The position numbers and the translations under genes are program-made. Source: Escherichia coli (GTDB lineage Bacteria; Pseudomonadota; Gammaproteobacteria; Enterobacterales; Enterobacteriaceae). From it: DNA of 64,000 nucleotides. This document shows positions 17,862 to 17,884 of this stretch, one piece after another. The first letter of the stretch is position 1. Every line of letters begins with the position of its first letter. The stretch lies in NCBI RefSeq assembly GCF_003334305.1, contig NZ_QOWS01000013.1; one strand, 5' to 3'. The notes beneath the pieces were generated by a model. The model was not told where the DNA came from. It saw only the letters and a list, made by a program, of their open reading frames with translations, and did no database searches.

Positions 17862-17884
17862 GGTATAACAGGTATAAAGGTATA
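17862..17884 (+). promoter_or_regulatory. NanR operator: three GGTATA repeats upstream of nanA
   Basis: GGTATAACAGGTATAAAGGTATA lies 36-58 bp upstream of the nanA start; matches the known Nan-box architecture. Confidence 0.7.

Follow-up and report, generated by a model that had tools for sequence, protein, structure and literature searches.

The window, by which we mean the whole 64-kb stretch of Escherichia coli chromosomal DNA that was analyzed, carries the regulator gene nanR followed by the nan genes, and the 121-bp gap between nanR and nanA contains a block of three GGTATA repeats. The coordinates of the nan genes were taken from the annotation of NZ_CP025892.1, shifted to the window (locus position minus 2301), and from NCBIfam scans. 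The following features were located:

17007-17798, + strand: nanR, encoding a FadR-subfamily GntR repressor of 263 amino acids with an N-terminal extension (NF003011, 408.9 bits against a cutoff of 260)
17808-17823, + strand: CRP-like dyad AGTGAagcagaTCGCA, 88% conserved
17861-17869, + strand: candidate extended -10 element TGgTATAAC inside repeat 1, the best-scoring element in a relaxed promoter scan
17862-17884, + strand: three direct GGTATA repeats, GGTATAACAGGTATAAAGGTATA, assigned as the NanR operator from the sequence itself, its rarity and its identity with K-12 MG1655
17920-18813, + strand: nanA, N-acetylneuraminate lyase, the first gene of the repressed operon (TIGR00683, 571.6 bits; annotation)
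18922-20412, + strand: nanT (full-length NCBIfam match; annotation)
20460-21149, + strand: nanE (full-length NCBIfam match; annotation)
21146-22021, + strand: nanK (full-length NCBIfam match; annotation)
22018-22482, + strand: nanQ/yhcH (full-length NCBIfam match; annotation)
33475-33582, - strand: ArcZ small RNA, beside arcB (Rfam, above the gathering score)
55081-55202, + strand: greA leader (Rfam, above the gathering score)
61855-61938, + strand: tRNA (Rfam, above the gathering score)

All NCBIfam matches to the nan genes were full length and exceeded the curated cutoffs. The first-pass annotation of this DNA had proposed an intact and regulated sialic acid catabolic operon, and this proposal is supported by the intact nanR gene and by the full-length matches of nanA, nanT, nanE, nanK and nanQ. 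The NanR protein encoded in the window is identical to K-12 NanR at 262 of 263 residues, including all of residues 1-32. The sole difference is T207A, the replacement of Thr207 by Ala in the C-terminal effector domain, and this substitution is probably neutral. The NanR structures in PDB entries 6ON4, 6WFQ and 6WG7 match the window protein over residues 1-263; the protein also scores against the FadR, LldR and PdhR models, in each case below the cutoff.

The region downstream of the operon was also inspected. Between nanQ and gltD, the next annotated gene, positions 22483-23542 hold a transposase fragment and a truncated yhcG (DUF1016/PDDEXK). In K-12 this junction is presumably occupied by gltF and the yhcA-yhcF genes, and none of these is annotated at the junction in the window. 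A nanQ-gltD junction of the window type is present in 720 of 5426 complete E. coli genomes.

The three repeats are exact GGTATA hexamers located at 17862-17867, 17871-17876 and 17879-17884, with a 3-nt spacer (ACA) after repeat 1 and a 2-nt spacer (AA) after repeat 2. The uniform 9-bp pitch that had been described for them holds for the first interval, while the second interval is 8 bp, as the repeats start at 17862, 17871 and 17879. The block begins 64 bp past the nanR stop codon, and 36 bp separate the end of repeat 3 from the nanA ATG. The arrangement at 17862-17884 fits the three direct GGTATA hexamers, 2-3 nt apart, that were described previously (PMC3658417). Over the whole nanR-nanA intergenic region and its edges, the window is identical to E. 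coli K-12 MG1655 (NC_000913.3) at 136 of 136 nucleotides. K-12 MG1655 belongs to the species in which the NanR operator was defined, and the primary footprint and S1-mapping papers on the operator are reportedly those of Kalivoda from 2003 and 2013.

The rarity of the arrangement was evaluated against several expectations. Single GGTATA hexamers are frequent in the 64-kb window, with 23 copies observed against 13.6 expected, a number attained in 2 of 100 shuffles. The operator is the sole same-strand triple of any hexamer at spacings of 7-11 bp in the window. Analytically, 4.9e-5 GGTATA triples are expected per 64 kb, and the triple was absent from 60 Markov-1 simulations. When the spaced operator pattern was searched with up to three mismatches, its only occurrence in the window was the one at 17862-17884, against 0.01 expected, and no further Nan boxes were found in the 64 kb at this tolerance.

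A scan for Nan boxes at other places in the genome had been suggested by the first-pass annotation; boxes are found at nanX and nanC in a 48-kb stretch of K-12, and the 64-kb window, with up to three mismatches allowed, holds none besides the operator itself. In K-12, a 23-mer identical to the window operator lies 412 bp upstream of nanX (yjhB), and on the nanC strand GGTATAACAGGTATAAAGGTGCA, with GGTGCA as its third repeat, precedes nanC by approximately 420 bp. No additional operator match was found in the 48-kb stretch that holds these two sites. The candidate -10 element TGgTATAAC is conserved in both the nanX and nanC promoters. The nanA, nanX and nanC promoters can be aligned over approximately 90 bp that take in a GTGA half-site, TTGATCT and the operator, and this suggests that the three may be copies of one promoter cassette.

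Among the 5426 complete E. coli genomes, the nanX-type promoter region is present in 1151 and the nanC-type in 5075. A 46-bp stretch covering the operator gave up to four matches in some E. coli genomes, which amounts to a surplus of about 1160 places. Additional operators of a kind not known before were considered as the source of these matches and rejected, since the surplus of about 1160 is close to the 1151 genomes with a nanX/yjhB-type promoter; no new NanR target is thus implied. This promoter and the nanA operator stretch have 30 identical nucleotides in common.

The nanA operator itself is nearly universal in the species. A 301-bp query around it matched about 5408-5410 of the 5426 complete E. 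coli genomes, with strain 503025, whose annotated record served for the gene coordinates, being 100% identical. Of the 5404 genomes that matched the 46-bp operator stretch, 5192 have it at 99% identity or more. Several exceptions were observed. The nanR-nanA region has no match in 16 of the 5426 complete genomes, and one copy of the region sits on a plasmid record. A four-repeat operator, GGTATAacaGGTATAacaGGTATAaaGGTATA, which arises by a 9-bp duplication of GGTATAACA, is present in E. coli PSJ-07 (NZ_AP027619.1; positions 2513-2544 of our locus L083). The same 58-nt four-repeat sequence occurs in KS-NP019 and 113, for a total of three of the 5426 complete genomes. In E. coli EC96 (NZ_CP060748.1; positions 1245-2506 of locus L084), the place of nanR, the CRP-like site and the entire operator is taken by an IS3-family element, with only approximately 10 nt of native sequence left before the nanA ATG. 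Judging from this sequence, NanR control of nanA must have been lost in EC96.

The conservation of the block was then assessed across the Enterobacterales using a NanR protein scan that covered one genome per species and did not assume the motif. This yielded 80 loci with NanR orthologues of 75-99% identity, from genera that include Escherichia, Citrobacter, Salmonella, Kluyvera, Raoultella, Trabulsiella, Lelliottia, Enterobacter, Edwardsiella, Atlantibacter, Buttiauxella and Hafnia. The nanA gene follows nanR in all 80 loci. The repeat had been predicted to occur in other nanA promoters, and the block was found at the same place in 79 of the 80 loci, with the following composition and mean identity to the window:

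Repeat 1: GGTATA in 77 of 79 loci, one variant being GGTGTA
Spacer 1: ACA in 77 of 79 loci
Repeat 2: GGTATA in 79 of 79 loci
Spacer 2: AA in 77 of 79 loci
Repeat 3: GGTATA in 36, GGTATG in 22, GGTACA in 15 and other sequences in 6 of 79 loci
Upstream flank, 17824-17859: 66% mean identity (79 loci)
Core, 17860-17882, + strand: 99.4% mean identity (79 orthologous promoters)
Downstream flank, 17885-17909: 41% mean identity (79 loci)

The constrained core, CTGGTATAACAGGTATAAAGGTA (17860-17882, + strand), therefore does not coincide exactly with the reported 17862-17884 and sits 2 bp to its left: it takes in the CT before repeat 1 and both spacers, and leaves out the last two bases of repeat 3. The final bases of repeat 3 vary freely over the 79 loci. 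The only one of the 80 loci without any GGTATA belongs to an uncultured Klebsiella MAG (CABUCP010000263.1; locus L054). Its 94-bp nanR-nanA gap retains a CRP-like site and a Shine-Dalgarno sequence and is missing the repeat block, which could be due to a real deletion or to an assembly error.

A strict scan of positions 17700-18000 returned no sigma-70 promoter and no terminator. Because the strict scan was empty, we infer the -10 element and the start site from the relaxed scan together with the CRP register. The extended -10 candidate TGgTATAAC would set the transcription start near 17876-17877. In an alternative assignment, TATAAA at 17873-17878 would serve as the -10 element with TTAATT as the -35 element. 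CRP is known to activate the nan operon (PMC10334811, PMC12562284). The center of the CRP-like dyad is 46 bp from the first base of repeat 1 in the window, and among the 60 upstream sequences in which a regular expression found the motif (the window and 59 loci), 59 have a distance of 46-47 bp. If transcription starts near 17877, CRP would sit at -61.5, where class I sites classically lie, and the operator would extend from roughly -15 to +8. With either of the -10 candidates, NanR bound to the repeats would cover the -10 and start-site region, a placement that fits repression by occlusion.

This overlap raises the question of whether the block is conserved merely as a core promoter, with its -10-like TATAAC, TATAAA and TATATC sequences, while NanR acts elsewhere. 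There is a TATA(A/T)N motif within every repeat, TGgTATAAC is a good extended -10 element, and the spacers are conserved to the same degree as the hexamers, a pattern that hexamer recognition alone does not explain. However, every repeat has an invariant GG, which lies outside the -10 hexamer, and footprinting of NanR over the repeats has been reported in the literature. In addition, EMSA, ultracentrifugation and cryo-EM show that NanR dimers bind oligonucleotides carrying the repeats and that the number of complexes tracks the number of repeats (PMC8012715). We consider an exclusively promoter-based conservation very improbable; most likely the promoter role and the operator role coexist, and a dual function of this kind may explain why the spacers are so strongly conserved.

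Published binding data agree with the assignment of the repeats to NanR that the first-pass annotation had made, as two studies place NanR on exactly these three repeats (PMC8012715, PMC3658417). What is said here of NanR binding, its stoichiometry, its cooperativity and its induction by Neu5Ac is taken from the literature. Three NanR dimers bind (GGTATA)3 cooperatively (KD ~20 nM, Hill coefficient ~1.9), and this cooperativity requires the 32-residue N-terminal extension of the protein (PMC8012715). A single repeat is bound poorly, two repeats give two complexes, and lengthening of the spacers by 6 nt attenuates binding (PMC8012715). Within each dimer, one DNA-binding domain reads GGTATA while the other touches adjacent non-consensus DNA, and the binding of Neu5Ac to NanR weakens the interaction with DNA (PMC8012715).

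Another regulator, such as NarL or NagC, was also weighed as the protein that recognizes the repeats. The NarL heptamer resembles the reverse complement TACCTnT, and in a motif-comparison study the NarL motif proved so close to that of NanR that one can be mistaken for the other at ompW (PMC13058942). Against this, the repeat site accompanies nanR in 79 of 80 species, and among the promoters examined it recurs only at two others, both of which belong to the sialoregulon. Genomic SELEX likewise identified NanR as a single-target regulator whose target is nanATEK/nanR (PMC8249747). Binding by a different regulator is on these grounds exceedingly unlikely. Finally, a functionless cluster of three hexamers that arose by chance in AT-rich intergenic DNA has a vanishingly small probability: lone GGTATA copies are common in the window, but the triple is not expected at this length and did not appear in any simulation, and the reading is refuted by the comparison of 79 species, in which the block shows 99.4% conservation and its flanks 41-66%, and by the return of the 23-mer at nanX and, in nearly the same form, at nanC.

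The site is thus almost certainly the operator through which NanR controls the E. coli nanATEK-yhcH (nanQ) operon for sialic acid catabolism, as the first-pass annotation had concluded, and no observation speaks against this assignment. This identification is upheld by the identity of the intergenic region with K-12, the near identity of NanR, the full-length match to the NanR structures and the presence of the repeat block in nearly all of the loci compared. The present analysis contributes the operator sequence, its rarity, its identity with K-12, the integrity of NanR and of the operon, the copies at nanX and nanC, and the phylogenetic footprint.

In the proposed mechanism, NanR, which is encoded immediately upstream, would bind the three GGTATA repeats with one dimer on each, and the N-terminal extension of 32 residues would build a cooperative three-dimer complex over ~23-30 bp. 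The repeat block would lie on or directly beside the core promoter, so that bound NanR would prevent initiation by RNA polymerase. N-acetylneuraminate would loosen NanR from the DNA and transcription would proceed, with cAMP-CRP at the 17808-17823 dyad (center near -61.5) predicted to aid it.

A more speculative proposal concerns the unequal conservation of the repeats. The functional unit across the Enterobacterales might be the invariant 21-23 bp block CTGGTATAACAGGTATAAAGGTA, which consists of two full repeats, the fixed spacers and the extended -10 element in repeat 1, and repeat 3 might be a tunable element whose strength sets the loading of dimers and the tightness of repression in each lineage. 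We put this forward tentatively and regard it as possible but somewhat doubtful. If true, it would add detail to a system that is already known and would not amount to the discovery of another.

The presence of a NanR operator before nanA is textbook knowledge and is not novel. For the window strain, the result means that its operon for sialic acid catabolism is of the standard type, intact and repressible by NanR. This trait is relevant to gut colonization, and the finding has little significance beyond annotation. Two descriptive additions to the literature can be made. The first is the 79-species footprint, in which the spacers and repeats 1 and 2 are near-invariant and the end of repeat 3 drifts. 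The second is the set of rare variants, namely the four-repeat operator, the IS3 replacement and the Klebsiella MAG without the block.

When compared with known systems, the NanR proteins of the RpiR family, which are found in Vibrio, Haemophilus and others, likewise control sialic acid catabolic genes, but they belong to an unrelated regulator family and have ManNAc-6-P as their effector. These regulators are not known to be associated with GGTATA repeats, and they are not relevant to the window locus. FadR and other FadR-subfamily GntR proteins have in common with NanR the winged-helix fold and the groove contacts (PMC8012715). In contrast to the symmetric binding of a single FadR dimer to one palindrome, NanR binds direct repeats asymmetrically as three cooperative dimers (PMC8012715). 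The comparison also takes in the other operators of the K-12 sialoregulon. The nanX-nanY (yjhBC) operator has the same 23-mer as the nanA operator, and the nanCMS/fimB operator has the same first 20 nt and differs in its GGTGCA third repeat. Both resemble the nanA operator in the TTGATCT ahead of repeat 1 and in the aligned upstream GTGA half-site, but they lie ~410-420 bp upstream of their start codons, compared to 36 bp at nanA. The closest counterpart is the K-12 nanATEK-yhcH operator (Kalivoda et al. 2003; Horne et al. 2021, PMC8012715), which has the same operator without any differences, the same operon, and a repressor identical at 262 of 263 residues, the NanR of the window strain being set apart by T207A.
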